NCBI GenBank assembly: GCA_049972095.1
Contig: JBMFKQ010000007.1
Span: 1-51,964 of the forward strand
DNA from: Elusimicrobiales bacterium
Lineage (GTDB): Bacteria; Elusimicrobiota; Elusimicrobia; Elusimicrobiales; UBA9959
DNA: 51,964 nt
Direction: 5' to 3'
This document shows, in pieces, positions 15,704-35,221 of this stretch (position 1 is its first letter; each line of letters opens with the position of its first letter). The notes under the pieces were generated by a model that did no database searches, was not told the DNA's origin, and saw nothing but the letters and a program-made list of their open reading frames with translations. A program made the translations under genes and the position numbers.

Positions 15704-16240
15704 TTAGTTTACAAAGTTATAACCCTTTTCTATAGCACTTTTATTTGTCTCTATTACATCAGCCTTTAGTTTTTTATAGACACTTGGAAGTGCCTTAACA
15801 AGCAGCTCCTTTTTAACAGCCCCAGTTACTTTTGAAACCACACCAAGCGCTATCATATTTATCACCTTTGCATTTCCAAGTTCATCGGCAATGGAATTTA
15901 AAGGAACCTCAATGATTCTTATGTCAGTCCTTTTTGATTTTGATTTCACCAAAGAAGAATTAACAACAAGTATGCCCCCTTTTTTCACAGAAGGCTCAAA
16001 TTTTGCAAAAGATGGCTCATTAAAAACAACAGCAACATCAGGTGATGTTACAATAGGGCTTGCAACCTCATCGTCTGATATAACAACAGAGCAGTTTGCT
16101 GTTCCACCACGCATTTCAGCACCATATGAAGGGAAAAAACTCACATTTTTCCCATCAAACATTCCAGCATAAGCAAGAAGAACTCCAGCAGAAATTACAC
16201 CCTGACCTCCAAAACCACTTAACCTTGCTCCTAAATACAT
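15704..16240 (-). CDS. 2-oxoacid:ferredoxin oxidoreductase gamma subunit
   Basis: SGFGGQGV, PSYGAEMRGGTANC, NMIALG. Confidence 0.92.
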   Translation of the reverse strand: MYLGARLSGFGGQGVISAGVLLAYAGMFDGKNVSFFPSYGAEMRGGTANCSVVISDDEVASPIVTSPDVAVVFNEPSFAKFEPSVKKGGILVVNSSLVKSKSKRTDIRIIEVPLNSIADELGNAKVINMIALGVVSKVTGAVKKELLVKALPSVYKKLKADVIETNKSAIEKGYNFVN

Positions 16241-16253
16241 AAAACCTCCTTCC

Positions 16254-17000
16254 TTATTTTACATCCTTATAAACCCCAGGTGGAAATACTTTTATCATAT
16301 ATTGCTCAATATATTTTGTGGCTTCAGATGGATTGTCAGCTTTTACCCCCCAGTTTGTTGGGCACATTGAAAGAATCTCAACGATTGAAAAACCAACACC
16401 TTCTATCTGATTTTGAAATGCCTTTTTTATAGCATTTTTTGTTTTTATAACACCACTAACATTATGAACCGTGGTCCTTTCGGCATATCTTGTGCCTTCA
16501 ACCACGGATAGAATCTCACAAACCTTTATAGGATATCCATTTACCTTTGGATCCCTTCCTGAAGTGGTAGTTGTTGATCTTTGACCTATAAGAGTTGTTG
16601 GTGCCATCTGGCCACCTGTCATTCCATATATAGCATTGTTTATAAATATAATCGTTATATTTTCATTTCTTGCTGCGGCATGAACTATCTCAGCCATACC
16701 TATTGAAGCAAGATCACCATCTCCCTGATATGAAAAAACTATTGTATTTGGGTTTGCCCTTTTTATTCCAGTAGCTATTGCAGGGCCTCTACCATGTGCA
16801 CCTTGTATGGTATCACAGTTAAAATATTGATCAGCGAACACAGCACATCCAACAGGGGCAATACATATCGTTCTGTTTCTAATTCCAAGCTCATCAATAA
16901 CCTCAGCAATGATCCTGTGAACAATACCATGTCCACAGCCCGGACAGTAATGCATCTTCACATCTAAAAGTGATTGTGGTTTTTTATTTAATAGTTGCAT
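16254..17000 (-). CDS. 2-oxoacid:ferredoxin oxidoreductase beta (TPP-binding) subunit
   Basis: HYCPGCGHG, QGDGDLASIG, NNAIYGMTGGQMAPT. Confidence 0.92.
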   Translation of the reverse strand: MQLLNKKPQSLLDVKMHYCPGCGHGIVHRIIAEVIDELGIRNRTICIAPVGCAVFADQYFNCDTIQGAHGRGPAIATGIKRANPNTIVFSYQGDGDLASIGMAEIVHAAARNENITIIFINNAIYGMTGGQMAPTTLIGQRSTTTTSGRDPKVNGYPIKVCEILSVVEGTRYAERTTVHNVSGVIKTKNAIKKAFQNQIEGVGFSIVEILSMCPTNWGVKADNPSEATKYIEQYMIKVFPPGVYKDVK

Positions 17001-18066
17001 AGTTCTTTACTCCTTCTTTAACTATTTTATTAACAGAATCTATAATCTCTTCAGGTGATATAATTGAACCACCTGGTCGTGCATGTAAATGCACATTAGC
17101 CCTACCATCAACCGCAAGTCTTACATCCTCAACCATCTGACCCAACGACATCTCAACAACAAGGATATTCTTTATCCTTTCCGAAATCTCGAATAATCTT
17201 TTCTTTGGAAATGGCCAAAGTGTTATTGGTCTAAAAAACCCTGCTTTTATTCCCTTCTCCCTTGCCATTTTAATGGCGGAGAGTGAAACCCTTGCGCTTG
17301 TTCCGTAAGCAACAAGGAGTATCTCAGCATCATCAGTCATCTTCTCTTGCCACATAACCTCTTTTTCCTCAATCTCACGGTATCTTTTCGCTCTTTCAAT
17401 AATCATTTTTTCAAGCATACCTTCTCTTAAATCATATGATGTAATTCTTCTACTCTTTCTTCCGTTATTAACCCCTATTGCCCAGTCTGGTTGAGGCAAC
17501 CTTGAAGGGTCAATCTCGGGGGTTTTCCATTCAATTGACTCCATCATCTGACCTATAATACCATCTGCAAGAATCATAGCAGGAACTCTATATTTATATG
17601 CTACCTCATAGCAGTGATATGGAAAATCAGCCATCTCCTGAACTCCATTTGGTGCCATAACAAAAACCCTGTAATCACCATGTCCCCCACCCCTTGTTGC
17701 CTGAAAATAATCACCCTGACTACCTGCAATATTTCCAAGTCCAGGTCCCCCTCTCATAACATTTGCAACAAGAAAAGGAAGATCTGCTCCAGCACAGTAG
17801 GATATTCCTTCCTGCTTTAAGCTTATCCCAGGACTTGATGAACTTGTCATTGATCTAACACCAGTAGCAGCTGCTCCAAATATCATATTTATTGCAGCAA
17901 CCTCTGACTCTGCCTGAACAAAAGAGCCACCAACCTGAGGAAGCCTCCATGACATATACTCAGGCACTTCATTTTGAGGGGTTATTGGATAACCCGCAAA
18001 AAACCTACACCCCGCTCTAACCGCTCCCTCACTAAGTGCTTCATTTCCTTTCATCAGTATCTTCAT
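16984..18066 (-). CDS. vorB: 2-oxoacid:ferredoxin oxidoreductase alpha subunit (VorB-type)
   Basis: MKGNEA, GYPITPQ, QAESEVAA, TSSSSPGISLKQE; ATG at 18066 after GAGGAGG. Confidence 0.88.
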   Translation of the reverse strand: MKILMKGNEALSEGAVRAGCRFFAGYPITPQNEVPEYMSWRLPQVGGSFVQAESEVAAINMIFGAAATGVRSMTSSSSPGISLKQEGISYCAGADLPFLVANVMRGGPGLGNIAGSQGDYFQATRGGGHGDYRVFVMAPNGVQEMADFPYHCYEVAYKYRVPAMILADGIIGQMMESIEWKTPEIDPSRLPQPDWAIGVNNGRKSRRITSYDLREGMLEKMIIERAKRYREIEEKEVMWQEKMTDDAEILLVAYGTSARVSLSAIKMAREKGIKAGFFRPITLWPFPKKRLFEISERIKNILVVEMSLGQMVEDVRLAVDGRANVHLHARPGGSIISPEEIIDSVNKIVKEGVKNYATIK

Positions 18067-18077
18067 ATCTATCCTCC

Positions 18078-18296
18078 TCATTCAACCTCATAGACAGATA
18101 TTGCAAGGTCAGGGCATATCCTTGCACAGCTTAAACATGCTATACATCCATCACCATTATATCTTGCAGGATAATATCCACTTTTTGAAAACTCATCTGA
18201 TTTTTCTATACATTTTTTGGGACATACCATAATACACAGATAACACCCCTTGCATCTTTCTACATCTATTTCTATCTTTCCTTTCTTTGGCATCAT
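18078..18296 (-). CDS. 2x[4Fe-4S] ferredoxin, delta subunit of the 2-oxoacid oxidoreductase
   Basis: CKGCYLC...CP and CIACLSC...CPD. Confidence 0.9.
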   Translation of the reverse strand: MMPKKGKIEIDVERCKGCYLCIMVCPKKCIEKSDEFSKSGYYPARYNGDGCIACLSCARICPDLAISVYEVE

Positions 18297-18325: not shown

Positions 18326-18354
18326 ATTATATAACTTTTTATACTAACTCACAA
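18326..18354 (-). promoter_or_regulatory. Sigma70-type promoter for the vor operon
   Basis: TTGTGA-N17-TATAAT on the minus strand, with the -35 inside the thiolase 3' end. Confidence 0.5.
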
Positions 18355-19520
18355 GCCAACGCAATCCCCATACCTCCACCTATACAAAGAGCTGCTATGC
18401 CTTTTTTAAGTCTTCTCTTTTTCATCTCATAAAGCAAAGTTACAGTTATTCTAGCTCCACTTGCGCCTATTGGATGTCCAAGAGCAATAGCACCACCATT
18501 GACATTTACAATATTAGGGTTAAGTCCAAGCTCTTTTATTACGGCGATAGATTGAACCGCAAAAGCCTCATTAAGCTCCCAGAGCTCAACATCCTCTTTT
18601 CTCCATCCAGCTTTTTGAAGGGTTAGCCTAACTGCCTCCACAGGACCAATGCCCATAACCGAAGGTTCAACACCATAACAGCCATAAGCCACTATTCTTG
18701 CCATTGGTTTTAGATTGTTTTTCTTAACTCCCTCCTCACTTGCAAGAAGCACTGCTGCTGCTCCATCATTTATGCCACTTGCATTTCCAGCGGTAACCGT
18801 TCCATCCTTTTTAAAAGCAGGCTTTAAAGCAGATAGCTTTTCAATTGTTGTGCCAAACCTTGGATGCTCATCTGTATCAAACACAATAACATCACCCTTC
18901 TTCTGATGTATTTCAATAGGCACTATTTCATCCTTAAATCTTGCTTCTTTTATCGCTTTTTCAGCACGATTCTGGGACATTACAGCAAACTCATCCTGTT
19001 CCCTTCTTGATATATTGTATTTCTCAGCAAGATTTTCTGCAGTTATTCCCATATGATAGTTATTGAATATATCCCATAAACCATCATATATCATTAAATC
19101 AATAAGTTCACCGTTGCCCATTTTATAACCCCATCTTGCATTTTTTACAGCATAGGGTGCATTAGACATTGACTCTGTGCCACCTGCTATTATCATTTTA
19201 GCCTCATGTGCTCTAATTAAGGAATAAGCAAGTGCAATACTTCTAAGCCCTGAACCACAGACCATATTTACAGTCATTGCAGTTTTTTCCTTAGGTATAC
19301 CACTATTTAGCTGAATCTGCCTTGCCACATTCATACCATTTCCTGACTGCAATACATTACCAAATATTACCTCATCAATCTCATTAACATCAATTTTGTT
19401 TTTCTCAATAATTTTTTTTACTACAATCTCCCCAAGTTTTGTAGCTGAAAAATCCTTTAAACTCCCCCCAAAAGAACCTATCGGAGTTCTCAATCCATCA
19501 ACTATATAAACATTTTCATG
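18339..19520 (-). CDS. Acetyl-CoA C-acetyltransferase (thiolase)
   Basis: NMVCGSG, NEAFA, GHPIGASG, CIGGGMG; the ATG (MHENV) reads at 19520-19518 in my count, while the ORF track gives 19523. Confidence 0.93.
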   Translation of the reverse strand, partial: HENVYIVDGLRTPIGSFGGSLKDFSATKLGEIVVKKIIEKNKIDVNEIDEVIFGNVLQSGNGMNVARQIQLNSGIPKEKTAMTVNMVCGSGLRSIALAYSLIRAHEAKMIIAGGTESMSNAPYAVKNARWGYKMGNGELIDLMIYDGLWDIFNNYHMGITAENLAEKYNISRREQDEFAVMSQNRAEKAIKEARFKDEIVPIEIHQKKGDVIVFDTDEHPRFGTTIEKLSALKPAFKKDGTVTAGNASGINDGAAAVLLASEEGVKKNNLKPMARIVAYGCYGVEPSVMGIGPVEAVRLTLQKAGWRKEDVELWELNEAFAVQSIAVIKELGLNPNIVNVNGGAIALGHPIGASGARITVTLLYEMKKRRLKKGIAALCIGGGMGIALACELV

Positions 19521-19539
19521 CATATATCCCCCTTAATAT

Positions 19540-20787
19540 TTATTTAAATGTTTCTTCAAGCGATTCACAAACCATAGATGCAGCATATCTCATATCCTTA
19601 TCGCTGTGTCTATAGCAAACATAGCCATGATGATATGGCTGAAGAAAAACCTTTCTTCTTATAAGCTGCGTGTAAAACTCAACTCTATATTTTTTATATT
19701 TCTCTTGAGGATCCTTTTTAAATGTTATATAAGGCATTAAAGGTGCACCTGAAAATTCAACAGGAAAATCCCTCTTTAAAAGATAACTATTCACGATATT
19801 GGCAAAAATCTCCCCCTTTCTTTTAACCTCATCAAGTATATTATCCCTCTCCATTATTTCTATCGTTTTAAGTGCGGCAACCATGGCAAGTGAGTTTGGA
19901 AAATATGTTGACGAAACAAAAACATTATTTGGTGGAGTTACAACATCCATTATCTCTTTCTTTCCACAAACCATACTAATCTCATATCCGTTTGCCATCG
20001 CCTTTCCAAAACAACCAAGATCAGGTGTAACACCAAATAATCTTTGTGCTCCACCTAAGGAGAATCTAAAACCAGTTCTTATCTCATCAAATATCAAAAC
20101 AGCATTGTATCTATTTGCAATCTCCCTAACTGTTTGAAGATAATTTGACTTTGGCATCTCAACAGGGTGAGCTAATGGGTGCCCTACAGGGGTTATAATT
20201 ATTGCAGCAAGATCATCTTTATACTTTTTAGCAAGATCTTCAAGCTCATCTACATTATTATAATGAAACTCATGAACATCCTCATATAATTTTTGAGGTA
20301 TTCCACCCTTCACCTCAACACACCAATCGTGCCATCCATGATAACCACATCTAAGAACGATTTTTTTACCAGTATAGCCTCTTGCAATTCTTATTGCAAG
20401 TGTTGTTGCATCAGAGCCTGTCTTAACAAAAATAACCATCTCAGCACAAGGAATTATTTCTGTTATTTTTTTTGCAAGTGTATTTTGAATCGGCTGAACC
20501 AAAGACATACAAAAACCTTTTTTTCTTATTTGTTCTATAACAGCATTATCTATCTCACGCTCTCTGTGTCCTATGATTATTGGACCATATGCACAAAGCA
20601 TATCAATATACCAATTACCATCAACATCCTTTACCTTCCCACCTTTTGCCTCCTCAAAAAATATAGGATATTCTCCTGGAACAAAATTATAAGGTCTTCT
20701 AATACCTGCCATCCCACCGGGAATCAGCTTCTGGGCCTCTTCATAAAGTTTAAATGAATCTTCAAGATTTAATCTTTTACTAACCAT
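19540..20787 (-). CDS. kat: Class-III PLP aminotransferase (HemL-like), probable 3-aminobutyryl-CoA aminotransferase
   Basis: FDEIRTGFR, FGKAMANG (PLP Lys); PGGMAGIRRPYNFVPGEYPIF and GYHGWHDW differ from true HemL (PGGVNSPVR, YHGHxD); lies between the kam genes and thiolase; ATG at 20787 after GGGAGG. Confidence 0.75.
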   Translation of the reverse strand: MVSKRLNLEDSFKLYEEAQKLIPGGMAGIRRPYNFVPGEYPIFFEEAKGGKVKDVDGNWYIDMLCAYGPIIIGHREREIDNAVIEQIRKKGFCMSLVQPIQNTLAKKITEIIPCAEMVIFVKTGSDATTLAIRIARGYTGKKIVLRCGYHGWHDWCVEVKGGIPQKLYEDVHEFHYNNVDELEDLAKKYKDDLAAIIITPVGHPLAHPVEMPKSNYLQTVREIANRYNAVLIFDEIRTGFRFSLGGAQRLFGVTPDLGCFGKAMANGYEISMVCGKKEIMDVVTPPNNVFVSSTYFPNSLAMVAALKTIEIMERDNILDEVKRKGEIFANIVNSYLLKRDFPVEFSGAPLMPYITFKKDPQEKYKKYRVEFYTQLIRRKVFLQPYHHGYVCYRHSDKDMRYAASMVCESLEETFK

Positions 20788-20814
20788 TATACCTCCCCAC
20801 TCCAATCTATCATA

Positions 20815-20823
20815 ATTATAACA
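20815..20823 (-). promoter_or_regulatory. Extended -10 promoter (TGTTATAAT) upstream of the aminotransferase-thiolase pair
   Basis: TGn-TATAAT about 27 nt upstream of the ATG. Confidence 0.45.
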
Positions 20824-20933
20824 TTTTTAAAAAGTATATTAATAGCCAGTTTCCCTTTTATTATCTCACTTTATAATTTTACTTCTATTGTGTCATTTTA
20901 ATTGTAGCAGTAAAATCATTATTTGCTTTGTAG

Positions 20934-21225
20934 TTATCTTACTGCTTTTTTATACTCTTCAATCAAAGCCTTTATTTGTGAGTCATCTGGAATATTATTA
21001 AGAAGTGGTATTATTTCATAATCATAATCAGCAAGTTTTTTATTTTCATCAAATCTTAAAATAATCTTTCCCACATGCTAAAAGATTGCCGCCAGATTGG
21101 CATATATTAAGGCATTTCCTTGTTTTAAGAGGTTTTCCTAAAAGCGTCTGTGAATGAACATCTATTATTCGGAATATATCTTTCTGCTAATTTTCTGACT
21201 TCTCCGTTTATGGATAATAAAAATC
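20934..21225 (-). pseudogene. Frameshifted remnant of a 5'-nucleotidase/UshA-like metallophosphoesterase
   Basis: Three successive frames read FLLSINGEVRKLAERY / IDVHSQTLLGKPLK..ICQSGGNL / HVGKIILRFDENKKLADYDYEIIPLLNNIPDDSQIKALIEEYKKAVR*. Confidence 0.6.
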
Positions 21226-21263
21226 ATCTCAAAAGCAAGACACTCGAATTTTCATTTTTAATA

Positions 21264-22028
21264 TTATAATTGTTGTAAACTATTCCCTTTACTTTGCCAA
21301 ATCATCTTCTCGTAAAGTTTTTTCACAATAAATGTTGCAACATCCTCAGCATATGTGCCAGGGCCAAAACCAGCATCAAAACCAAGTTCAAGCGCAAGCT
21401 TGTTATCTATTCTTGGACCTCCAATTATCAGTATAAATCTGTCTCTTATACCCTCTGCCTCAATGAGCTCTATGAAGTTTGTAAGGTTTTTTATATGGGT
21501 ATCTTTTTGTGTTACAACCTGAGATATTAGAATAGCATCTGCATTTACTTTCTTTGCTGTTTCTATGAGTTTTTCATTTGGAAGCTGTGCGCCAAGATTC
21601 ATTGCCTCAATCATTGGATATCTTTCAAGTCCATAGTGATGATTATATCCCTTCATATTCATTATTGCATCTATCCCAACGGTATGCGCATCAAAACCAG
21701 TTGTAGCACCAACGACTACTACCTTTCTTTTTATATTTTTTCTTATAAAATCATTCACCTCATCCATACTCATAGCTTTTTCCACAGCTACTACATACTC
21801 AATAGCATCATAATCTATAGAAACATCAGATTTCACATAGGCTATGAAAAAGGTAAACTCATCACTCAGATAAGCCATATTTACTATACTGACATCCTTA
21901 AAACCAATCTTTTCAAGATATTTTTTTGCACACTCCTTTGCCTTGCCGCCAACAGGAACAGGAAGTGTAAATGATATCTGCATTGCTCCATCATTAATTG
22001 TATCCCCATATGGTCTTACAACCCTCAT
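21264..22028 (-). CDS. kamE: Lysine 5,6-aminomutase beta subunit (B12-binding)
   Basis: RPYGDTINDG, DAHTVGIDAIMNMKG (DxHxxG plus PLP Lys), GFDAGFGPG. Confidence 0.95.
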   Translation of the reverse strand: MRVVRPYGDTINDGAMQISFTLPVPVGGKAKECAKKYLEKIGFKDVSIVNMAYLSDEFTFFIAYVKSDVSIDYDAIEYVVAVEKAMSMDEVNDFIRKNIKRKVVVVGATTGFDAHTVGIDAIMNMKGYNHHYGLERYPMIEAMNLGAQLPNEKLIETAKKVNADAILISQVVTQKDTHIKNLTNFIELIEAEGIRDRFILIIGGPRIDNKLALELGFDAGFGPGTYAEDVATFIVKKLYEKMIWQSKGNSLQQL

Positions 22029-22049
22029 AATTCCCCCTATTTAATTCAT

Positions 22050-23639
22050 TTATGATCTGATACACAATCTTTTTTTAAGATAATCCTCAACAGGATTATA
22101 ATAGTTCTTATCCTTTTCAATAACCCCATCAAGCCCTCTTCCACCATCCCTTTGTCTTTTTATGTCAGCAAACATACCTTTCTCTATTGCTTCAAAAAGT
22201 CCTATCCTTGATATTTCTTCAAGCATTTTTACTGATTCATCAAGAACCTGATGTGCTCTTCTAACTATTATTCCATCCTTTTTAAACGAAATCTCATTTA
22301 GGAAATCAGCTATGTTATTATGAACATACTTAGCATTTTCTATAGCAAGATATCTATCCTGTAGGTATGGTGTATGAATGGCTTCGGTAAGCATACCAAG
22401 AAGCTGTATTGTTTGGTCAGTAGCCTTTGCAACAAAATTAAACATAGTATTCATTGCATAACCTTTAAATATATCCCCTGTCATAAATTTTGTTGGCGGC
22501 ATATACTTTAGTGGATGATTCGGAAATATCTCCCTTGCCATAAGTGCCTGTGCAAACTCAAGTAAAAAACCATTTTTTATTGATGGATCCATCTCAAAGG
22601 CATGACCTAAACCAATCAGCTCTTTTCTGAGCCCTGCTTTAAGTGCAAAGCTTTCGTTTATAAACTGGGATGTTAGAACGGTGTGTGCCTTTTCAACAGC
22701 ATCACTTGTTGTAAGATAATTATCCTCACCTGTGTTTATTATTATCTCACATGAGGCATTTATCATTCTTGAGAAAAATTGATCAGTAAATGTTCTATAC
22801 ATATTTATGTCTCTAAAAAGTATCCCATACATTGAATCATTGAGCATCATATCAAGCCGCTCAATAGCACCCATTGCTGCAATCTCAGGCATACACAAAC
22901 CAGAGCAGTAATTTACAAGTCGTATGTATCTTTTAACTCTCTCACTTACTTCATCAAGCGCTTTTCTCATTATCCTAAAATTCTCCTGAGTTGCATATGT
23001 GCCACCAAAACCCTGAGTTGTTGCACCATAAGGAACATAGTCAAGAAGGCTTTGCGCAGTTGTTCTTATAACAGCAATTATATCCGCACCTTCAAGTGCA
23101 CAAGCCTGTGCCTGCTTTACATCCTCATATATATTTCCAGTTGCAACTATCACATAAATCCAAGGTCTTTTTTCATTTGCTGAAAACTCATTTATTTTTT
23201 TTCTTCTATAATCAACATTTTCATTTAGTTTTTTATCAAGCCTTTTAATTAACTCATCTGCTTTTTTCTCTATTCTTGAGTGATCAACAAGCTCAACCTT
23301 TGATATATCATATCTTCCCTCAGCTATCTCATTATTCAACTCCTCAACACTTTTCCCACTTCTAATAAGTGCACTAAGGTAATATCTTGCAATTCCTTGA
23401 GAAAGCTTATCTTTCAAAGCATCAACGATTATATTTGGAACAGGAACACCATTTTTATCAGCTCCATCAACCCCAAAAAGTCTAAGTGTTGCTCTTTCAA
23501 TGGTAGTTGTTGTGTGAGCATTTATGTATTTAAAGACATCCGATGTTATTTTATCTGCAAGTTTTCTTGCTTTATCAATCTTATTAAGATCAAGAGCAAG
23601 TATTTTTGTTTTCTTTAGTGTTTTTCTTTTTGCCTCCAT
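22050..23639 (-). CDS. kamD: Lysine 5,6-aminomutase alpha subunit
   Basis: YVIVATGNIYED, QSLLDYVPYGAT.GFGGTYATQENF, NTGEDNY; ATG at 23639 after GGAGGAG. Confidence 0.95.
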   Translation of the reverse strand: MEAKRKTLKKTKILALDLNKIDKARKLADKITSDVFKYINAHTTTTIERATLRLFGVDGADKNGVPVPNIIVDALKDKLSQGIARYYLSALIRSGKSVEELNNEIAEGRYDISKVELVDHSRIEKKADELIKRLDKKLNENVDYRRKKINEFSANEKRPWIYVIVATGNIYEDVKQAQACALEGADIIAVIRTTAQSLLDYVPYGATTQGFGGTYATQENFRIMRKALDEVSERVKRYIRLVNYCSGLCMPEIAAMGAIERLDMMLNDSMYGILFRDINMYRTFTDQFFSRMINASCEIIINTGEDNYLTTSDAVEKAHTVLTSQFINESFALKAGLRKELIGLGHAFEMDPSIKNGFLLEFAQALMAREIFPNHPLKYMPPTKFMTGDIFKGYAMNTMFNFVAKATDQTIQLLGMLTEAIHTPYLQDRYLAIENAKYVHNNIADFLNEISFKKDGIIVRRAHQVLDESVKMLEEISRIGLFEAIEKGMFADIKRQRDGGRGLDGVIEKDKNYYNPVEDYLKKRLCIRS

Positions 23640-25206
23640 ATATCTCCTCCAGATATTCTTTTGCTCTACTGCATATAGATCTATCCATTCCAATTATCTG
23701 AGCAATTTCAATGGCATCAGATGATACTATATGACTGTCAGACACCTTTGTAATCTCATAATCCATAAATTTATTGATAAATTTTATCCTTTCAGTTATA
23801 TCCTTTTTCTCAATATCAGCAAACCTTGAATACTTCTCCTTATTAAAACCTTTCATCTTAAGAAACTCAACAGATTGAGCTTTTTTTATACCTGAAAAAT
23901 GAGTTGCAAGAAAAAAATAGATATTCTTCTTATCAGCAAAATAATCAATAAGAGCATTTATAATAGAGATTGCCTCTGAATAATTTGTAGTTTTGCCAAA
24001 CTCATCTGTGACTATGAAAACAGTTCCTTTATCTATTTTTTTAAGTTCCTCAGACATCTCATATATCTCATATGCAAAACTGCTCAAACCCTTCACCTCC
24101 TCACAAGCTACTGGCACTGATATTCTTTCAAAAACAATAGTTATAAACTCATCAGCAGGTACAAAAAAACCACATTGTGCCATATATTGAAGAAGTAATA
24201 GGGTTTTTAGAACAACAGTTTTCCCCCCCATGTTTGAGCCCTGAATTATGTTTATTCTTTTTTCAAAGTTGGAGGTAAGTGGAATATAGTTTATATTCAT
24301 ATCATCAAGCAGTTTTTTAAGCGGAAGATAAACTGCATTTTTTACATATATCCTTGATGTATTAAATTGGGGTCTTTTAAGCTTAAACATCTCAGCTAAA
24401 TCATATGAGGCCATAGCCACATCCAACTCAAGGATCGGTTCTATACATTCAAAAATCTTATCAGATCTTTTTTTTAGCTTAGATATTATGTCTTCAAGAA
24501 CAAAAGATTCTATTTTTTTTATCTCAAAAACTATCTTCTCCCTCTTGCCTAAAAGCTCAATATACTGTTGAGAATATTTTGGCCTTAGAATTATCCTTGT
24601 TGAGTCATATATATCAACTGTAAAAAAATCTGATACATTGCTGGGTATATCTTTTGCCTCTACTATTATAAAATCAGATTTCAAATCAAAACCATAGTTT
24701 TTCTTTACATCATCTCTAAATCTATCTTTAAAAACCTCAATCTCTCTAAATACATCAGTAAGTTCATTTCTTAACCTCTTTAATCTTTCATCGTAGTTTT
24801 CACTTATGTAGAAGTTATCAGATAAACCATCTGGATTTAAATATTTAAAAAGATCTTCCAGCTTCCATTCAAAACCAAAAAAACTTCTTGCTTTTGAAGA
24901 TAAAAGTTTGTATATTGCATAATAGTTATTTATAAATTTTTTAACAAGAAAAACATCAGATATATCCGAAAATGCCTTTGAACTGCTTATATATGTTATA
25001 TTCTTTAAGTGATATTTTATCCTATCATAAGTAAGACGGTTATTTTTTTTAATCTCAGCTACAACTTCTATTGCATCATACTTTCTCTTTATCAGCTTCT
25101 TATCAGTGAAAGGCAGGAGATTTTCTTTATAAGCCTTTCCATAAGGTGTAAGCGGTATAAAATATTTCTTTACAAAGTCAAACTCACAAAAAATTTCAGG
25201 CTTCAT
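23590..25206 (-). CDS. kamC: MutS-like ATPase, probable lysine 5,6-aminomutase reactivase KamC
   Basis: GSNMGGKT, AQCGFFVPA, GLSSFAYE, DEFGKTTN, ATHF; no mismatch-recognition domain; between kamB and kamD. Confidence 0.8.
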   Translation of the reverse strand: MKPEIFCEFDFVKKYFIPLTPYGKAYKENLLPFTDKKLIKRKYDAIEVVAEIKKNNRLTYDRIKYHLKNITYISSSKAFSDISDVFLVKKFINNYYAIYKLLSSKARSFFGFEWKLEDLFKYLNPDGLSDNFYISENYDERLKRLRNELTDVFREIEVFKDRFRDDVKKNYGFDLKSDFIIVEAKDIPSNVSDFFTVDIYDSTRIILRPKYSQQYIELLGKREKIVFEIKKIESFVLEDIISKLKKRSDKIFECIEPILELDVAMASYDLAEMFKLKRPQFNTSRIYVKNAVYLPLKKLLDDMNINYIPLTSNFEKRINIIQGSNMGGKTVVLKTLLLLQYMAQCGFFVPADEFITIVFERISVPVACEEVKGLSSFAYEIYEMSEELKKIDKGTVFIVTDEFGKTTNYSEAISIINALIDYFADKKNIYFFLATHFSGIKKAQSVEFLKMKGFNKEKYSRFADIEKKDITERIKFINKFMDYEITKVSDSHIVSSDAIEIAQIIGMDRSICSRAKEYLEEIYGGKKKNTKENKNTCS

Positions 25207-26065
25207 ATGGATTATATATTATCCTTTTTATGGCAGAAGCTGGAATTCTGGCCTCAAACTCATCTCTTTCTATATCATATAGATTTACAACATATCCGTC
25301 AAGACTAAATGATGAGGCAAAAAATACAGAAAACCTTTTTCTAAAACTCATCCAGTCTGAGAGATTTAAGAAAACCTTTGTAAAATCCATTATAAATATC
25401 TTCTTCACACCTTTAGGAATCTTCTCAAGCCTTTCATATCCAAATATTCCCTTTGTAAACAAAATATCCTGATAAACTACATCACCGACAATATCTTTCA
25501 TAAATTCGTAATTACTTGAATTTACTGGAACTTTAAGAAAATCCTCAAAGAGATTTATTCTCTCAACAACACTGTTTATATTATCAGGTCCAACCCTGCT
25601 AACATAATAGAATGATGCATAAGGAAAGGTCGAAACTTGAGTTATTCTATCAAAAGCACCATCAATAAAAATATATTCTACATAACTCTTGAGTTTTTCA
25701 ATCACCTCAAAAACCTTTGCATTTGAACCAGGTGAAAAGAGTTTTAAACTACAATCATAAAGCGGTCTTATAACAGCAGGCCTTCCACCACCAACATCCT
25801 CTTCAATTATATCCTCAATCACAAATGGAACATTTATCTCATTAAAAAAAAGTGTGTTTGTAACAACAAGCCATCCTTTTTTAACATTTACCTTCGGTTT
25901 ATAAGAAATATTAAGGAAATTATCAGATGATGATGTTACTCCAATACAAGCACAGGCAACCTTCTGCGATGCGTTATAGGTGTTAAGAAGATAATTTAAA
26001 AATGTAGTCTTCCCGCAATTTTTTTCAAAACCAGTTATAAACACCACACTTGTTTGTTTATTCAT
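25196..26065 (-). CDS. kamB: Probable lysine 5,6-aminomutase reactivase subunit KamB
   Basis: P-loop-like GFEKNCGKTT and IDGAFDR motifs; position between kamA and kamC. Confidence 0.7.
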   Translation of the reverse strand: MNKQTSVVFITGFEKNCGKTTFLNYLLNTYNASQKVACACIGVTSSSDNFLNISYKPKVNVKKGWLVVTNTLFFNEINVPFVIEDIIEEDVGGGRPAVIRPLYDCSLKLFSPGSNAKVFEVIEKLKSYVEYIFIDGAFDRITQVSTFPYASFYYVSRVGPDNINSVVERINLFEDFLKVPVNSSNYEFMKDIVGDVVYQDILFTKGIFGYERLEKIPKGVKKIFIMDFTKVFLNLSDWMSFRKRFSVFFASSFSLDGYVVNLYDIERDEFEARIPASAIKRIIYNPYEA

Positions 26066-26090
26066 AAAATTTTGAATTTTAGGAGCTGTA

Positions 26091-27359
26091 CTACTTATTA
26101 TGTCTTTTAGATCTTGAAAGATCTTTTGGCTCTATAGTTAGCATCTCGCCATTCAACAGCTTTGCAATTCCATCAGTGGGTTTATACCTCTCCTCTTTAC
26201 AGTACTGACAACTACATTCTGTTTTTTTGTAGTCATCAGGTTGAGTATAAGCAGTTATAACACCTTCATAGTTTCTTAAAATGACTTTTGTATCCGAGAT
26301 TGAAATAAGGTATTGCGGCATAACAGGAATTTTCCCGCCACCACCAGGAGCATCTACCACAAATGTGGGGACTGCCATACCGGTGGTATGTCCTCTTAAA
26401 TTTTCTATTATCTCAATTCCCCTTGCAACTGATGTTCTAAAATGTCTTATTCCCATAGATAGATCACATTGATATATATAATAGGGTTTTACCCTTATCA
26501 TTAACAGCTCATGCACAAGCCTCTTCATTGTCTGAGGACAATCATTTATACCCCTTAATAAAACGCTTTGATTCCCAAGAGGGATACCAGCATCAGCAAG
26601 CTTTTCACAGGCTATCTTAGCATCAAGGGTTATTTCTTTTGGATGATTGAAGTGAGTATTTAAATATATCGGATGATATTTTTTAAGCATATTAACAAGA
26701 TTATCTGTTATTCTCATTGGCATAACAACAGGCACCCTTGAGCCTATTCTTATTATCTCAACATGCTTAATGCTTCTAATCTCACTTATAATCTTTTCAA
26801 GCATCTCATCACTTAGTACCAATGGATCCCCACCTGATATCAAGACATCACGCACTGTCTCATTTTTTCTTATATAGTCTATAGCCTTTTCTAACTCCTG
26901 CCAGCTTCTATGAAGATCCTCAAAACCCACAAGTCTTCTTCTGGTGCAATGTCTACAGTTCATAGAGCATATATTAGTTACAAGGAAAAGAACTCTGTCA
27001 GGATATCTATGAGTAATTCCAGGCGCGGGTGAATCTACATCCTCGTGTAATGGATCCTTTAAATCCTCAGGATAATATTTTAACTCCTCTACACTTGGCA
27101 CAGCCATCCTTCTTACAGGGCAATTTTTATCCTTTTTATCCATAAGTGCTGCATAGTATGGAGTTATTGACATCCTAAACCTCTGTAAAACCTTTTTAAG
27201 CTCCTGCTCTTCATTTTCATCAATATAGGCAACCTTTTTTAAAGTTTCAACATCTTTTATCGCATTTGAAAGCTGCCATCTATAATCATGCCACTGTTCA
27301 TCAGTCACATCTTTCCATAAAGCTATATCCTTCCAAGTGACTTTTTTAAACTCTTTCAC
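26091..27359 (-). CDS. kamA: L-lysine 2,3-aminomutase (radical SAM)
   Basis: THRYPDR, CSMNCRHCTRRR, DAPGGGGKIP, C-terminal CSCQYC; GTG at 27359 after GGAGG (alternative ATG at 27380). Confidence 0.96.
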   Translation of the reverse strand: MKEFKKVTWKDIALWKDVTDEQWHDYRWQLSNAIKDVETLKKVAYIDENEEQELKKVLQRFRMSITPYYAALMDKKDKNCPVRRMAVPSVEELKYYPEDLKDPLHEDVDSPAPGITHRYPDRVLFLVTNICSMNCRHCTRRRLVGFEDLHRSWQELEKAIDYIRKNETVRDVLISGGDPLVLSDEMLEKIISEIRSIKHVEIIRIGSRVPVVMPMRITDNLVNMLKKYHPIYLNTHFNHPKEITLDAKIACEKLADAGIPLGNQSVLLRGINDCPQTMKRLVHELLMIRVKPYYIYQCDLSMGIRHFRTSVARGIEIIENLRGHTTGMAVPTFVVDAPGGGGKIPVMPQYLISISDTKVILRNYEGVITAYTQPDDYKKTECSCQYCKEERYKPTDGIAKLLNGEMLTIEPKDLSRSKRHNK

Positions 27360-27379
27360 CACTTGACCTCCATATATCA

Positions 27380-28429
27380 TTAGATATAATGCTTTTCAAA
27401 CTCTCTTCTTATTACCTTAGACCTCCTCAATATATCAAGAGCAATCTCACTATGTCCATTTACATAACCATTACCTATAATCATATCAATGTCCTTGCCA
27501 ACACCCTCAGCACCAAGGGCTGCTTTTGTAAAGCTGGTTGCCATAGAAAAGAAATAAACTACACCTCTTTCTCTTGCCATAAGTATTGAAGCCATTTCAG
27601 TATTTGGTATGTTTACGCAGTTTATAACCACATCCGCCATCTTTCCATTTGTTATTTTATGTATCTCTTTATAGCAATCTAATGCATCAGTTGCATCAAG
27701 TCTCAAAACATAATCACACAATCCTAATCTTTTTAATCTCTTAAACCCTTCATCTGAATGTGTTATACCTATAACCTTACCTGTAATACCAGCTCTATTT
27801 TTAGCGCTATAGCAGCATAAAACACCAGATTTCCCGCTTGCACCAATTATAACAACTATATCACCAGGTTTAACAAGCCTATCAGTTTGCGCTGGTGCTC
27901 CTGCAACATCCAGCACAGCAAGTGCAAGACTTTCTGGAATATCCTTTGGAAGCTTGGCATATATTCCACTTTCAAACAATATTGCTTTTGCTTGGACATT
28001 AACCTGTTCAGTGCCTTTTTTTATACTTATTATTCTCTCTATCTTTAAAGGGGTAAGCGAAAGTGAAACAAGCGAGGCTATTTTATCTCCTTCCTTTAGA
28101 TCTATTTTGTCTTTGAGCCTTGGACCTATCCTAAAAACCCTACCAATAAACATACCACCTGAACCAGTTACAGGATTTTGCATTTTCCCTCTCTCATTTA
28201 CTATCTCCATTATCCTTGCCTTTATTTTATCCTCATCATTATTCACTGAATTTTTTATCTGAGTAAAACTAGCAGAATCTATATTTAATACTGAGACATC
28301 AACCATTATCTCATTATCCCACATATGATCCATTGAGTTGTCAAGCTTCAAAGCAGGCTGAGGCAAAACATTTTTAGGCTCAATTACTCTATGACTTCCA
28401 AATGGACATCCATTAGTTCTAATCTCCAT
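27380..28429 (-). CDS. kdd: L-erythro-3,5-diaminohexanoate dehydrogenase
   Basis: GCPFGSHRVIEP, LNIDSASF, GKMQNPVTGSGG, SLVSLSLTPL, LDVAGAPAQ. Confidence 0.93.
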   Translation of the reverse strand: MEIRTNGCPFGSHRVIEPKNVLPQPALKLDNSMDHMWDNEIMVDVSVLNIDSASFTQIKNSVNNDEDKIKARIMEIVNERGKMQNPVTGSGGMFIGRVFRIGPRLKDKIDLKEGDKIASLVSLSLTPLKIERIISIKKGTEQVNVQAKAILFESGIYAKLPKDIPESLALAVLDVAGAPAQTDRLVKPGDIVVIIGASGKSGVLCCYSAKNRAGITGKVIGITHSDEGFKRLKRLGLCDYVLRLDATDALDCYKEIHKITNGKMADVVINCVNIPNTEMASILMARERGVVYFFSMATSFTKAALGAEGVGKDIDMIIGNGYVNGHSEIALDILRRSKVIRREFEKHYI

Positions 28430-28447
28430 AACACCTCCTTATAAAAA

Positions 28448-29263
28448 TTATCTTAAACCAAAAATCTTTCTTACATCTGACGGAGTTGCAACATCAAGTT
28501 GAGCTTCTTTAATTATTCTTACAGCCCTTTCAACAAATTCAGCATTTGAGTTAGCAACAACTCCTTTTGCATAATAAATATTATCCTCAAAACCAACTCT
28601 TATAAACCCACCAAAAGCAATAGCACCATATATAGCGGGCAAATGGGCTTTACCTATACCCATAACAGTAAAATAACTATCATCCGGCAACATATCTATC
28701 ATCTGAGATAAAATCTTTGGGCTATAAGGTAATATACCTGGAACATTTAAAACTAAACCAAAATGGTAAGGGGATTTTATTAAACCTTCTTTGGCAAGAA
28801 ATTTTGCGTTTTCTATATGAGAATAATCAAAGCATTCAAGTGTAGGTTTAACCCGATATCTATTCATTTCGCTTGCAAACATCTTCATTATAGGAATAGT
28901 ATTTATAATATAATCATCTCCAAAATTTACTGTCCCACAATCAAGCGATGCCATATCAGGCTCTAAACTTAGAGGTTTCATTCTTTCTTCGGGGGTCATA
29001 CCTACTGCACCCCCTGTTGTAATTTCAATTACAATATCACATTTTTTCCTTATCAGCTCAATTGTTTTTTTAAAAACCTCTACATCCTGTGTAGGAGTCC
29101 CATCCTCATTTCTTACATGCAGATGAACTATTGAGGCTCCTTGAAGATAGGATTTATAAGTTTCTTCAGCTATCTCCTCCGGTGTAATTGGGAGATTTGG
29201 ACATTTTTCTCTGGTAGTTTCAGCACCTGTAATTGCAACTGTTATAGCTATTTTAAAACTCAT
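28448..29263 (-). CDS. kce: 3-keto-5-aminohexanoate cleavage enzyme
   Basis: ITGAE, GASIVHLHVR, STGG-like TTGGAVG, RVGFEDN. Confidence 0.92.
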   Translation of the reverse strand: MSFKIAITVAITGAETTREKCPNLPITPEEIAEETYKSYLQGASIVHLHVRNEDGTPTQDVEVFKKTIELIRKKCDIVIEITTGGAVGMTPEERMKPLSLEPDMASLDCGTVNFGDDYIINTIPIMKMFASEMNRYRVKPTLECFDYSHIENAKFLAKEGLIKSPYHFGLVLNVPGILPYSPKILSQMIDMLPDDSYFTVMGIGKAHLPAIYGAIAFGGFIRVGFEDNIYYAKGVVANSNAEFVERAVRIIKEAQLDVATPSDVRKIFGLR

Positions 29264-29277
29264 ATACCACCCCTAAA

Positions 29278-30042
29278 CTATTTTTTCCCAAGGACAAGTC
29301 CATCTGGATCTATTTCTCTAAGTATCTTCAATGACTCTTGGTCAGGCTCAGGTGAAACAGAAAGATTGCTATGTATAATTATATCCATTGATGAGTTTGC
29401 CTTTATATCCTCAACAGTTACCCCAGGATGAAGTGAGATCAATCGTATGCGTTTTGTCTCTTGCTCAAAATCGTAAACCCCAAGCTGAGTTATAACTCTA
29501 TAGGGACCACCCTCAGGCAATCCCGCTTTCTTCCTACCATCAGGACCATCTATATATCCAGGGGTTGTTATAAAATTGAGCTTATCAACAAATTTATCCT
29601 TATCTTGTTTCATAATAATTATTGTTCTAAAACAAAACGAACCTATATCGTTTGCTCCACCAGATCCAGGTAATCTGACTTTTGGTTTATCCCAATCACC
29701 TATCACAGTAGTATTAATATTACCATATTTATCAATCATAGCTGCCCCAAGAAATCCATAATCAATATATCCACTTTGAGCCTGACTCATAACATCATGC
29801 ATACTTGATGCAGCAACTGCCTTATAAAATGTTCTTGAATCACCAACTGATATAGGAAGAACTGGCGATTTTGGACCAACACCACCAGCTTCAAATATAA
29901 TCAAAAGATTGGGGGCAAAGCTTCTTTGAGCAAGCATCGCACTTATCATAGGAAGCCCAGTTCCAACAAAAACACTTTTCCCATCTTCAAGGGTTCTGCT
30001 GGCAATATAAGCTAAAAGCTCAGTTGGTGTATAGTATGACAT
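29278..30042 (-). CDS. Family I CoA-transferase beta subunit (GctB-like)
   Basis: VFVGTGLP, IFEAG (catalytic Glu), IDKYGNINTT, RLPGSGGAND. Confidence 0.9.
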   Translation of the reverse strand: MSYYTPTELLAYIASRTLEDGKSVFVGTGLPMISAMLAQRSFAPNLLIIFEAGGVGPKSPVLPISVGDSRTFYKAVAASSMHDVMSQAQSGYIDYGFLGAAMIDKYGNINTTVIGDWDKPKVRLPGSGGANDIGSFCFRTIIIMKQDKDKFVDKLNFITTPGYIDGPDGRKKAGLPEGGPYRVITQLGVYDFEQETKRIRLISLHPGVTVEDIKANSSMDIIIHSNLSVSPEPDQESLKILREIDPDGLVLGKK

Positions 30043-30056
30043 ATAATCCCCCTAAA

Positions 30057-31046
30057 CTATTTAAAATTTAGATTTTCGATAGATGAAAGTTTTTTCATCT
30101 TATCTTCTCCACCAATAAGCTTAATATATTCACTAAACTCCTTAACACCATAGATATACTTATCAAGATATTCTCCTACACCCTCATCAGTTTTTGACAT
30201 CTCAAGCCAAAGCTTTATATGTTCCTCATCAAAGTAATATCTATATGGCATGTTACCTGGATGTGATCCATACCTTACCTCAACAACAGCATCCACAAGA
30301 TAAAAAGGGATGGTTGTAAGATAGGGTTTTTCCCTTATTATCCCCTCATCCACAACCTCTTCTGTTGTTATTATAAGCCTTTTGGCAGATCTTGCAAGTT
30401 CAAAATCCTCAACCATAATACCCTCTATCTGAGCATTACCATATTTATCAGCCCTGTGAACATGTATAAAAACCACATCCGGATTGGCAGACGGTATAAG
30501 CACTATATTTTTACCTGAGAATGGACATTTAACAATCTTGCAGGATGATTTTTTAAAGGTATCCGTTCCCATCATATTTCTTGCAGGAATAAATGGGATA
30601 CCCATCATACCTGCCAAAAATCTCCACTGATATCCAGCGTTTGTAATCTCAGCTACAACCTTACACTCTCCATTTTGCACCTTTCTTCTTGAAGCAGGAG
30701 AAAGCCCTCTAAGCTCATGCCCAAATGAGTAAGCAACTTCAACCTCGCTCACACATCCACTTGCAACCAAAAGATCAATATCATGAACAGCAGTTTTTCC
30801 AGCCATAATTAAATTTTTCTTTCTTTGTCTAATAATCTCATAGACAATAGCCATCGAAATCCTTACATGACCAAAACCACCAGAGGCTATAAAATCACCA
30901 TCCTTAATATATCTTTCAACTGCCTCCCTCACACTCATCCTTTTGTCAATAAGCTTTCTTGATTTGTTCTCCCTTATAAATCTCCTATGCTCATCAGGAT
31001 CAACCCATCCTACAAGCTTTCCTTCCCCACTTGCAATAACATCCAT
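30057..31046 (-). CDS. Family I CoA-transferase alpha subunit (GctA-like)
   Basis: GGFGHVR, MGIPFIP, PDVVFIHVHRADKYGN; ATG at 31046 after GGAGG. Confidence 0.9.
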   Translation of the reverse strand: MDVIASGEGKLVGWVDPDEHRRFIRENKSRKLIDKRMSVREAVERYIKDGDFIASGGFGHVRISMAIVYEIIRQRKKNLIMAGKTAVHDIDLLVASGCVSEVEVAYSFGHELRGLSPASRRKVQNGECKVVAEITNAGYQWRFLAGMMGIPFIPARNMMGTDTFKKSSCKIVKCPFSGKNIVLIPSANPDVVFIHVHRADKYGNAQIEGIMVEDFELARSAKRLIITTEEVVDEGIIREKPYLTTIPFYLVDAVVEVRYGSHPGNMPYRYYFDEEHIKLWLEMSKTDEGVGEYLDKYIYGVKEFSEYIKLIGGEDKMKKLSSIENLNFK

Positions 31047-31081
31047 AAAACCTCCAAAAAACAAATATATAAAAATTTTAC

Positions 31082-31772: not shown

Positions 31773-31779
31773 TAGATGT

Positions 31780-31807
31780 GGGGCAGATCACTAAAAAGAC
31801 TGCCACC
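31780..31807 (+). ncRNA. Candidate pan-motif-like cis-regulatory hairpin with two bulged A residues
   Basis: GGGGCAG[A]TC-actaaaaa-GACTGCC[A]CC; 9 bp, with A31787 and A31805 unpaired; located in the leader of the pantothenate operon. Confidence 0.55.
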
Positions 31808-31810
31808 TAT

Positions 31811-32503
31811 ATGAAAATACTTATCATAGGAAAATCAAAGGTAGCAAAATCATTCTCAGCATATCTGAGATATAGGAGAATAAATCATAAAGTAATAGCA
31901 TATAGAAAGATAAATAGTTATGCTGAAAAGATAAAAGACTATAAAACCATCTTTTTCATTTCAAAAGACTCTGAAATAGATAAATTTTATAGAAGATTTA
32001 AAAAAAGGATTTATCCTAATGCAAAGCTCTTTCATTTTTCAGGCTCTATACTTCATCATAAAATTGTAGGCATGCATCCAATCTTTTCTTTTAAAGAAAA
32101 ACCAATCGCCCCATTTGATTTTGAAAAGATAATATTCACATCCGAAGATCCATCTTATATAAGAAAGAATCTGAAATGGTTTAAAAACAGGATTATAAAA
32201 ATCAAACCAGAGCAGAGGGTGATGTATCATGCCCTTCTTTCAATATATCTTAACTTTCCTCTTATAATAAAGGAGATAACTCATAGATTACTCATAAAAT
32301 ATGGCATACCATCTAAATACTTAAATTATGTCTTTGAAAGAAATATAAAAGATGCATTAAACTCAAAGAAAGGTATAACAGGACCTATAGCAAGAGATGA
32401 TTTGAAAACCATCAAAAAACACCTTTCAGCACTTAAAAAAACAGAATTCTTACAACTCTACAAAGCAATATTAAACCTTTGGAGGGGATATGAAAATAGA
32501 TGA
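31811..32503 (+). CDS. Rossmann-like/DUF2520 protein, probable PanG-type ketopantoate reductase
   Basis: FHFSGS, GMHPIFSF, YHA and ITGPIARDD..TIKKHL motifs; directly upstream of panB. Confidence 0.8.
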   Translation: MKILIIGKSKVAKSFSAYLRYRRINHKVIAYRKINSYAEKIKDYKTIFFISKDSEIDKFYRRFKKRIYPNAKLFHFSGSILHHKIVGMHPIFSFKEKPIAPFDFEKIIFTSEDPSYIRKNLKWFKNRIIKIKPEQRVMYHALLSIYLNFPLIIKEITHRLLIKYGIPSKYLNYVFERNIKDALNSKKGITGPIARDDLKTIKKHLSALKKTEFLQLYKAILNLWRGYENR

Positions 32504-33245: not shown

Positions 33246-33246
33246 T

Positions 33247-35212: not shown

Positions 35213-35221
35213 GGAGGATAG

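Follow-up and report, generated by a model that had tools for sequence, protein, structure and literature searches.

A predicted Kat-type lysine fermentation cluster in a bacterium of the Elusimicrobiota

Introduction

A stretch of 51,964 nucleotides, referred to here as the window, forms the entire contig C7 (JBMFKQ010000007.1) of a bacterial genome assembly (GCA_049972095.1; 1.44 Mb in 58 contigs, completeness 96.5%, contamination 0.45%). On its minus strand we found eleven intact, tightly packed genes (31064..18339), the first encoding subunit A of a coenzyme A (CoA)-transferase and the last a thiolase, which very probably specify the Kat variant of lysine fermentation in a bacterium of the Elusimicrobiota, and probably of the Elusimicrobiales. 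In this variant an aminotransferase, Kat, takes the place of the ammonia-lyase Kal. The cluster is complete and its gene order is kept in relatives, the aminotransferase (19540..20787) is a Kat orthologue as judged by phylogeny and alignment, and genome searches detected neither Kal nor hemA nor a crotonase.

The Kat enzyme, its pathway and a clustered layout with kat replacing kal were published in 2011 by Perret et al. (PMC3149608). That paper names CLOAM0809 as the Kat of ‘Candidatus Cloacimonas acidaminovorans’ and DIG1_60031 as a protein encoded on a Bacteroidetes contig from a digester; biochemical assays demonstrated Kat activity in the Cloacimonas enzyme and in an orthologue from Bacteroidetes ∼65% identical to it, and on the Bacteroidetes contig kat lies in kal's place within clustered lysine genes. 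An earlier note on the window had drawn attention to the physical clustering of the route, which indeed holds here, though as a layout it had already been shown for the Bacteroidetes contig.

Results

The lysine cluster

The eleven genes are given below in the order in which they would be transcribed.

30057..31064, minus strand: CoA-transferase subunit A, GctA type (Pfam CoA_trans, 135 bits; 335 aa from a TTG start)
29278..30042, minus strand: CoA-transferase subunit B, GctB type (Pfam CoA_trans, 104 bits; 254 aa)
28448..29263, minus strand: kce (NF052387, 381.7 bits, cut-off 382; BKACE, 321 bits)
27380..28429, minus strand: kdd, L-erythro-3,5-diaminohexanoate dehydrogenase (NF052381, 275.8 bits, cut-off 200)
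26091..27380, minus strand: kamA, lysine 2,3-aminomutase, radical SAM (TIGR03820, 618 bits, cut-off 525; LAM_C and Radical_SAM)
25196..26065, minus strand: kamB-like, divergent 5,6-aminomutase reactivase subunit (NF052386, 89 bits, cut-off 210; position conserved)
23590..25206, minus strand: kamC, reactivase ATPase, MutS-like (NF052383, 345.5 bits, cut-off 300)
22050..23693, minus strand: kamD (NF052384, 832.5 bits, cut-off 600)
21264..22028, minus strand: kamE (NF052385, 372.4 bits, cut-off 280)
19540..20787, minus strand: kat, predicted 3-aminobutyryl-CoA:2-oxoglutarate aminotransferase (Aminotran_3, 186.5 bits; 415 aa, ATG start)
18339..19523, minus strand: thiolase, acetoacetyl-CoA type (TIGR01930, 497.6 bits; Thiolase_N and Thiolase_C)

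All of these genes had been named in the earlier note and placed at 18339-31046, and each is present there on the minus strand as an intact open reading frame (ORF). The end that the note gave to the cluster does not stand, since a four-subunit 2-oxoacid:ferredoxin oxidoreductase (18296..15704) continues after 42 bp.

Two of the annotated starts may need revision. The kamD ORF, with its TTG start, runs into kamC, and the true start probably lies later because the match to NF052384 begins only at residue 32. The start of CoA-transferase A may likewise lie farther downstream, with alignments starting at about residue 35-41. The kamB-like protein is 29-44% identical to the product of the gene at the same position in Elusimicrobia loci, and a tblastn search of the genome with the thiolase gave a single match, the operon gene itself. 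We also observed that positions 3-464 of the 502-bp contig C57 encode a fragment 60% identical to kamA, which may represent either another member of the KamA family or a stray contig.

Identity of the aminotransferase

The best NCBIfam matches of the aminotransferase are HemL models, and in the PDB, where no Kat structure was found, the closest chains are GSAM enzymes (∼205 bits, 3bs8). Some public records also call close homologues ‘glutamate-1-semialdehyde 2,1-aminomutase’. These matches would favour a true HemL that merely adjoins the lysine genes, with an unrecognised lyase handling 3-aminobutyryl-CoA, a reading to which we give almost no credence. The protein scores only 273.3 bits on the HemL model TIGR00713, against a cut-off of 527.3, whereas true HemL proteins of Elusimicrobiota score 557-631 bits. 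This low score, together with the failure to find hemA in the genome, was counted against HemL identity. No Kal-like sequence was found in any frame, and three genomes of the same family (G286, G224 and G319) carry a true HemL alongside the Kat orthologue. Relatives of the aminotransferase in a large protein collection scored 640-965 bits at 65-87% identity; the nearest are labelled Elusimicrobiota and further ones Cloacimonadota or Bacteroidales, and two bear the JGI name ‘3-aminobutanoyl-CoA transaminase’.

We used phylogeny to place the protein relative to both groups. Kat relatives were confirmed in at least 586 of 600 candidate stretches of a species-genome collection, and the 80 Kat-like loci retained from these stretches served for the sampling of both tree and gene context. 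The tree, a quick IQ-TREE run with SH-aLRT support only, comprised 66 rows: the window protein and 46 of the 80 loci, hand-picked for taxonomic spread (the 34 omitted were mostly additional Cloacimonadota and short contigs); ten Elusimicrobiota HemL proteins, nine of which pass the TIGR00713 cut-off while the tenth scores 523 bits; six of eight PRK06209-like proteins, L109 and L111 being excluded for their N-terminally extended ORFs; two other paralogues; and, as outgroup, a second class-III aminotransferase encoded in the same genome. The exact CLOAM0809 and DIG1_60031 sequences were represented by loci with Cloacimonas and Bacteroidales labels; six homologues looked up by cluster bore no name pointing to CLOAM0809. 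All 47 Kat rows fell on one side of a branch with an SH-aLRT support of 91, and the HemL rows formed a separate group (support 100). Within the Kat rows, the window protein lies inside a clade of 15 Elusimicrobia rows (support 99), with L025 as its closest row at 77% identity.

Pairwise comparisons agreed with the tree. Global identity of the window aminotransferase is 65% to the Cloacimonas locus and 69% to the Bacteroidales locus, but 31-34% to true HemL of the same phylum and 29% to its own paralogue. The lysine that would form the Schiff base with pyridoxal phosphate, K262, aligns with a lysine in all 47 Kat, 10 HemL and 6 PRK06209-like rows, and the class-III aminotransferase fold is likewise shared with HemL, the closest group with structures. 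Across the 47 Kat rows 103 residues are invariant, and the window protein has every one of them. At 30 positions Kat and HemL are fixed differently, under a criterion that tolerates one deviating row per position, and at least 29 of these carry the Kat state in the window protein.

Taken together, these comparisons identify the product of 19540-20787 as a Kat orthologue, which groups with the Cloacimonas and Bacteroidales proteins and apart from HemL of its own phylum, in line with what the earlier note had proposed. Its identity of 65-69% to the Cloacimonas and Bacteroidales loci is similar to that within the active pair of Perret et al., given as >65% (PMC3149608). Orthology and gene context point to 3-aminobutyryl-CoA as the compound that the window enzyme would transaminate.

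Distribution and gene context in relatives

Both ClpB and the Kat relatives place the contig in the Elusimicrobiota, a result of the marker-gene taxonomy that the earlier note had suggested. ClpB (278-2845) has seven named matches with at least 64% identity, all carrying the label Elusimicrobiota or Elusimicrobiales, and the first matches with other labels appear at 62% or less. Kat itself was detected in 40 of 400 other sampled Elusimicrobiota genomes, 36 times at full length (62-83% identity) and 4 times as a fragment (60-79%); the next best match among these genomes is at 41% identity. Kat or a fragment of it was present in 32 of the 46 other sampled genomes of the window's own family and in 4 of 118 of the next family; in two further families the counts were 2 of 10 and 2 of 48.

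The 80 Kat loci carry a wide range of labels, namely Elusimicrobia, Cloacimonadota, Bacteroidales, Bdellovibrionota, Myxococcota, Desulfobacterales, Bacillota, Sumerlaeota, Bipolaricaulota, Coprothermobacterota and Asgard archaea. Since the Kat clade is shallow across these phyla, horizontal transfer is suggested. The four Asgard-labelled loci (L046, L064, L072 and L077) hold Kat orthologues at 65-66% identity; three of the four also hold kce, kdd and kamA, and two of those three kamDE as well.

The gene context of the 80 loci, many of which are short, was surveyed by tblastn with 15 window proteins. At least one of kce, kdd, kamA, kamD and kamE was found in 39 loci and at least three in 24. 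The thiolase was present in 41, and in 29 loci it occurred without any of the five core genes. The order kce-kdd-kamABCDE-kat is kept in the eight loci of the Elusimicrobia clade that cover it (seven labelled Elusimicrobia, and L069), including L026, L058 and L062. Unlike the window, Bacteroidales loci have kat ahead of kce, as do the Asgard loci. We also noted a trehalose synthesis block inserted between kamA and kamB in L025 (1135-5178; duplicated in L139), made up of a GT20/trehalose-phosphatase fusion, a DUF5752 gene and a TreT-like gene.

This context bears on a further explanation, in which a different β-aminoacyl-CoA is the substrate of the Kat-like enzyme and the products of the adjacent genes, or the cluster supplies β-lysine rather than energy. 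According to Perret et al., Kat accepts other β-aminoacyl thioesters in vitro, and a Kat homologue is known in a bacterium lacking lysine fermentation genes (PMC3149608); the top model for kamA is also of the AblA type. However, a complete string of kamA, kamDE, kdd and kce lies directly upstream of kat, in an order kept in relatives, the product of Kce is precisely the substrate of Kat, and no acetyltransferase partner for β-lysine was seen in the cluster. We regard this explanation as very unlikely, only slightly less so than a true HemL, and retain lysine fermentation through Kat as the predicted function of the cluster.

Searches for Kal, heme and butyrate genes

The earlier note had reported no kal, bcd or etf in the window, and none was found there. 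Over the whole genome, the Kal portion (positions 1-160) of the Kal-Kce profile NF052389 gave no match, with positions 161-437 matching at kce only. The Kal model NF052388 matched nothing in the genome and exceeded its cut-off in 0 of 401 sampled Elusimicrobiota genomes (best 35 bits against 160), but this model is without a positive control, as 0 of 14 control genomes pass the cut-off. Of the heme genes, only hemA and hemL were searched in the genome: hemA gave only a 15-bit match and hemL nothing above the curated cut-off, the second hemL match being the paralogue on contig C11. The genome search for kal and hemA that the earlier note had recommended thus found neither gene.

Genes of butyrate formation gave a mixed picture. 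An ECH_1 crotonase was not found in the genome, and 3HCDH_N matches were weak, at best 37 bits. Contig C29 carries, as a group, an acyl-CoA dehydrogenase (555 aa, with a C-terminal extension), EtfB and an EtfA with an N-terminal ferredoxin domain, a second acyl-CoA dehydrogenase lies on C3 with another ETF pair 18 kb distant, and C43 encodes a butyrate kinase (487 bits, cut-off 289) adjoining a Ptb-like gene. The earlier note had regarded kal together with bcd/etf elsewhere as evidence that would overturn its proposal; of these, kal was not found genome-wide, but bcd and etfBA were, on C29 and C3.

These genes raise the possibility that lysine ends as acetate plus butyrate, with part of the acetoacetyl-CoA converted to crotonyl-CoA by unrecognised enzymes, reduced by Bcd-EtfBA and released as butyrate through Ptb and Buk. 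Acetate plus butyrate is the scheme that Perret et al. proposed for Cloacimonas, where they describe the same gap in the butyrate steps as seen in this genome (PMC3149608). A butyrate branch would also balance redox without an outside electron sink. Against it, the crotonase and a strong 3-hydroxyacyl-CoA dehydrogenase match are missing from the search results, the Bcd-Etf group on C29 is flanked not by lysine genes but by the histidine-degradation genes ftcD/fchA and hutH/hutU, and the genome offers alternative sinks in a group-3b-like NiFe hydrogenase, a group-4-like complex, complex I and fumarate reductase. On C29 (L019 564-5743, 11665-14862), a sensor kinase and other genes intervene before hutH. 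We consider this acetate-plus-butyrate outcome unlikely. The conversion of lysine to acetyl-CoA and acetate that the earlier note had put forward fits the genome better, because no crotonase was found and 3-hydroxyacyl-CoA dehydrogenase-like matches are weak.

Several points nevertheless weigh against fermentation of lysine to acetate by this cluster. Absences in a 96.5%-complete genome of 58 contigs are not proof, and the control for the Kal model is lacking as described. Within the cluster, kce falls 0.3 bits short of its curated cut-off and kamB far short of its own, and the CoA-transferase is not of the AtoDA type assayed by Perret et al. (PMC3149608) but a GctAB relative. The Kat homologue noted in an organism without lysine fermentation genes is ∼60% identical (PMC3149608), so identity alone leaves the substrate unfixed. 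The sole gene of the PTA_PTB family resembles phosphate butyryltransferase, under the cut-offs, and since bcd/etf (C29 and C3) and buk/ptb (C43) are present elsewhere in the genome, a minor butyrate branch by unrecognised steps is possible. Finally, we infer the enzyme activities, the amino acceptor, the end products and the re-oxidation of NAD(P)H from sequence.

A glutaconate-type CoA-transferase

The two CoA-transferase genes at the head of the cluster differ in type from those of most relatives. The best solved relative of subunit A is 1poi_A, a glutaconate CoA-transferase (121 bits), and subunit B matches 1poi_B at 168 bits, with E51 aligned with the glutamate of the ESG motif of 1poi_B, which we take to be the catalytic one. 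By these alignments the enzyme belongs to the glutaconate (Gct) type of family I CoA-transferases. Both subunits are similar in size to those of GctAB of Acidaminococcus fermentans (PDB 1POI); unlike them, the window genes lie in a lysine operon, at the position that AtoDA occupies in relatives.

In L026, L058, L062 and G060, two AtoD/AtoA-type genes of ∼220 aa stand before kce. An AtoD-type gene was not found in our genome. AtoDA encoded elsewhere in the genome was considered and rejected, as tblastn queries taken from the AtoD and AtoA genes of L026 and L058 gave only weak hits, to the Gct-type genes at 25-26% identity. The GctAB type was present in one of 60 other genomes of the same family, G226, at the same position and with 80-82% identity; its locus L139 (copy at 637-2414) duplicates L025, and the two were counted once. 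GctAB-type genes also occur in the Sumerlaeota locus L084 (2759-4525; 48-54% identity).

The position of the genes predicts a role in the activation of acetoacetate with acetyl-CoA. A role of GctAB in glutamate fermentation via 2-hydroxyglutarate was ruled out, as no HgdAB-type 2-hydroxyglutaryl-CoA dehydratase (PF06050) matched in the genome. Acetoacetate is a likely acceptor because the genes occupy the lysine-operon position of the relatives' AtoDA and because this dehydratase is missing from the genome search.

The adjoining 2-oxoacid:ferredoxin oxidoreductase

The oxidoreductase genes (18296..15704; delta, alpha, beta, gamma) start 42 bp past the thiolase stop.

18078..18296, minus strand: 2-oxoacid:ferredoxin oxidoreductase delta (72 aa; two CxxCxxCxxxCP motifs, 4Fe-4S, ferredoxin-like)
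16984..18081, minus strand: 2-oxoacid:ferredoxin oxidoreductase alpha, VorB-like subfamily (NF005507, 515.6 bits, cut-off 399; POR_N and PFOR_II)
16254..17000, minus strand: 2-oxoacid:ferredoxin oxidoreductase beta, thiamine pyrophosphate (TPP)-binding (TPP_enzyme_C, 84 bits; TIGR02177, 129 bits, under cut-off)
15704..16240, minus strand: 2-oxoacid:ferredoxin oxidoreductase gamma (Pfam POR, 140 bits; TIGR02175, 91 bits, cut-off 81)

The alpha subunit passes a VorB-like model (515 against 399 bits), a match from which the substrate of the oxidoreductase is not readable. The delta subunit is 72-78% identical to the product of the gene preceding oforA in Elusimicrobia loci. An oxidoreductase lies within the available flank of 11 of the 80 loci, namely 9 of the 13 labelled Elusimicrobia, L069 and the Cloacimonadota locus L080. 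That it is a fixed part of the operon throughout the phylum proved only partly true: usually 1.1-6.3 kb of unrelated genes precede oforD, and the genes between kat/thiolase and oforD include a GT4 glycosyltransferase, BrkB, a response regulator and an SSF transporter. Only the window and G060 have the oxidoreductase abutting the thiolase, at distances of 42 nt and 31 nt, respectively.

The gap between kamE and kat

The tight packing of the cluster is interrupted once.

20788..21263, minus strand: gene-free stretch between kamE and kat (476 bp, AT-rich; ORFs all of 46 aa or less)

Promoter-like sites at 20842-20815 and 20813-20786 lie immediately 5' of kat, and one weak terminator-like hairpin was seen at 21102-21090. 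The promoter-like sites weakly suggest that kat, thiolase and oxidoreductase may form a separate transcription unit. A decayed kal inside the gap was ruled out, since six-frame searches with NF052389 and NF052388 were blank and no ORF exceeds 46 aa. No lysine or cobalamin riboswitch was recognised in or before the operon; an Rfam scan of the whole window gave no family at gathering score. The equivalent gap measures 4-36 bp in four and 182-338 bp in six of ten Elusimicrobia-clade loci compared. A 46-aa ORF in the gap (20934-21074) may be a remnant of an unrelated gene.

Neighbouring genes

Upstream of the CoA-dependent lysine operon, the plus strand (31778-36007) carries panB, panC, a split coaBC and a type III pantothenate kinase. 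A type IV pilin gene separates these pantothenate and CoA synthesis genes from the operon, and the adjacency may be a coincidence. Farther along, on the minus strand, an ORF of 2424 aa (38255-45529) with CarboxypepD_reg, FlgD_ig and prealbumin-like domains probably encodes a large surface protein, and a gene with a FecR domain is found two genes farther upstream, also on the minus strand.

Discussion

Modelled on the enzymology of Perret et al. (2011; PMC3149608), the proposed route would begin with KamA, which would convert lysine to β-lysine, and KamDE, kept active by KamBC, which would form 3,5-diaminohexanoate. Kdd would deaminate this oxidatively to 3-keto-5-aminohexanoate, from which Kce, with acetyl-CoA, would produce acetoacetate and 3-aminobutyryl-CoA. 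Kat is predicted to transfer the amino group of 3-aminobutyryl-CoA to 2-oxoglutarate, yielding acetoacetyl-CoA and glutamate, and a glutamate dehydrogenase encoded on C18 could restore 2-oxoglutarate. The CoA-transferase would move CoA from acetyl-CoA to acetoacetate, and the thiolase would cleave both molecules of acetoacetyl-CoA to acetyl-CoA. By our own arithmetic, each lysine would give a net yield of 2 acetyl-CoA, 1 acetate, 2 NH3 and 4 reducing equivalents, with ATP formed via acetate kinase (ackA, on C2).

Four reducing equivalents per lysine imply the need for an electron sink. The genome encodes a NiFe hydrogenase of four subunits, one of them NAD(P)-binding, together with a HycI protease (C4), an 11-subunit complex (C19), a complete NuoA-N complex I (C3) and a three-subunit fumarate reductase/succinate dehydrogenase (C31); the group names, 3b-like on C4 and group-4-like on C19, are our own assignment from subunit architecture. 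The group-3b-like hydrogenase, and complex I with fumarate reductase, are candidates for re-oxidation. [FeFe] hydrogenase, Rnf, cytochrome bd and heme-copper oxidase were also searched in the genome as sinks, and none was found.

The predicted system shares KamA, KamDE, Kdd, Kce, Kat, a CoA-transferase and a thiolase with the Cloacimonas and Bacteroidetes Kat systems, and a further common feature is that kal was not found; kat adjoins the thiolase as in Cloacimonas and lies within the lysine cluster as on the Bacteroidetes contig (PMC3149608). It differs from them in its host, an Elusimicrobiota bacterium, in the use of GctAB (335 and 254 aa) in place of AtoDA, and in the oxidoreductase that follows the thiolase. 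With the classical cluster of Fusobacterium nucleatum and Clostridium sticklandii (Kal, Bcd-Etf, AtoAD) it shares the same enzyme families as far as 3-aminobutyryl-CoA and acetoacetate (PMC3149608). In contrast to that cluster, no Kal was found in the window organism, its lysine cluster is without bcd/etf and a crotonase was not detected in its genome; acetate without butyrate is the predicted product, and an outside electron sink would be needed.

Full-text literature searches found no paper tying Elusimicrobia to lysine fermentation or to the Kat route. One study assigns the lysine fermentation pathway to Muribaculum, Butyricimonas, Odoribacter and Flavonifractor, not to Elusimicrobium (PMC6069880), and the word ‘lysine’ is absent from the main text of a survey of Elusimicrobia genomes (bioRxiv 10.1101/765248). 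The suggestion in the earlier note that the lineage might be unreported is thus borne out in the literature searched, but the genes themselves are present in many public Elusimicrobia assemblies. The Kat route is already known, and the window is a sound but ordinary instance of it in a phylum for which we found no published mention. What is new here is GctAB at the position of AtoDA, an oxidoreductase 42 bp past the thiolase, and the presence of Bcd/EtfBA and Buk/Ptb in a genome in which no crotonase was found.

The finding extends a biochemically established variant pathway to the Elusimicrobiota, where it looks common in the window's family, and its value is modest. It also has a bearing on annotation. 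NCBIfam holds curated models for Kdd, KamB, KamC, KamD, KamE, Kce and Kal; no Kat model matched, and public records consequently label Kat as a generic class-III aminotransferase or as HemL. Such labels can falsely imply heme synthesis and mask lysine fermentation.

The exchange of the CoA-transferase and the link to the oxidoreductase bear on the fate of the additional reducing equivalents that the Kat route would generate. We can tentatively envisage, as a possibility more doubtful than probable, that the route was rebuilt in this sub-lineage, with GctAB activating acetoacetate and the oxidoreductase, apparently co-transcribed with kat and thiolase, tying the acetyl-CoA/2-oxoacid pool to ferredoxin. 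Alternatively, the oxidoreductase might provide Kat with its amino acceptor. If the route has been rebuilt in this manner, the glutaconate CoA-transferase family would have a new substrate role, the oxidoreductase would reach the group-4 hydrogenase-like complex via ferredoxin, and ‘lysine to three acetate plus H2’ would be a self-contained, energy-conserving module.

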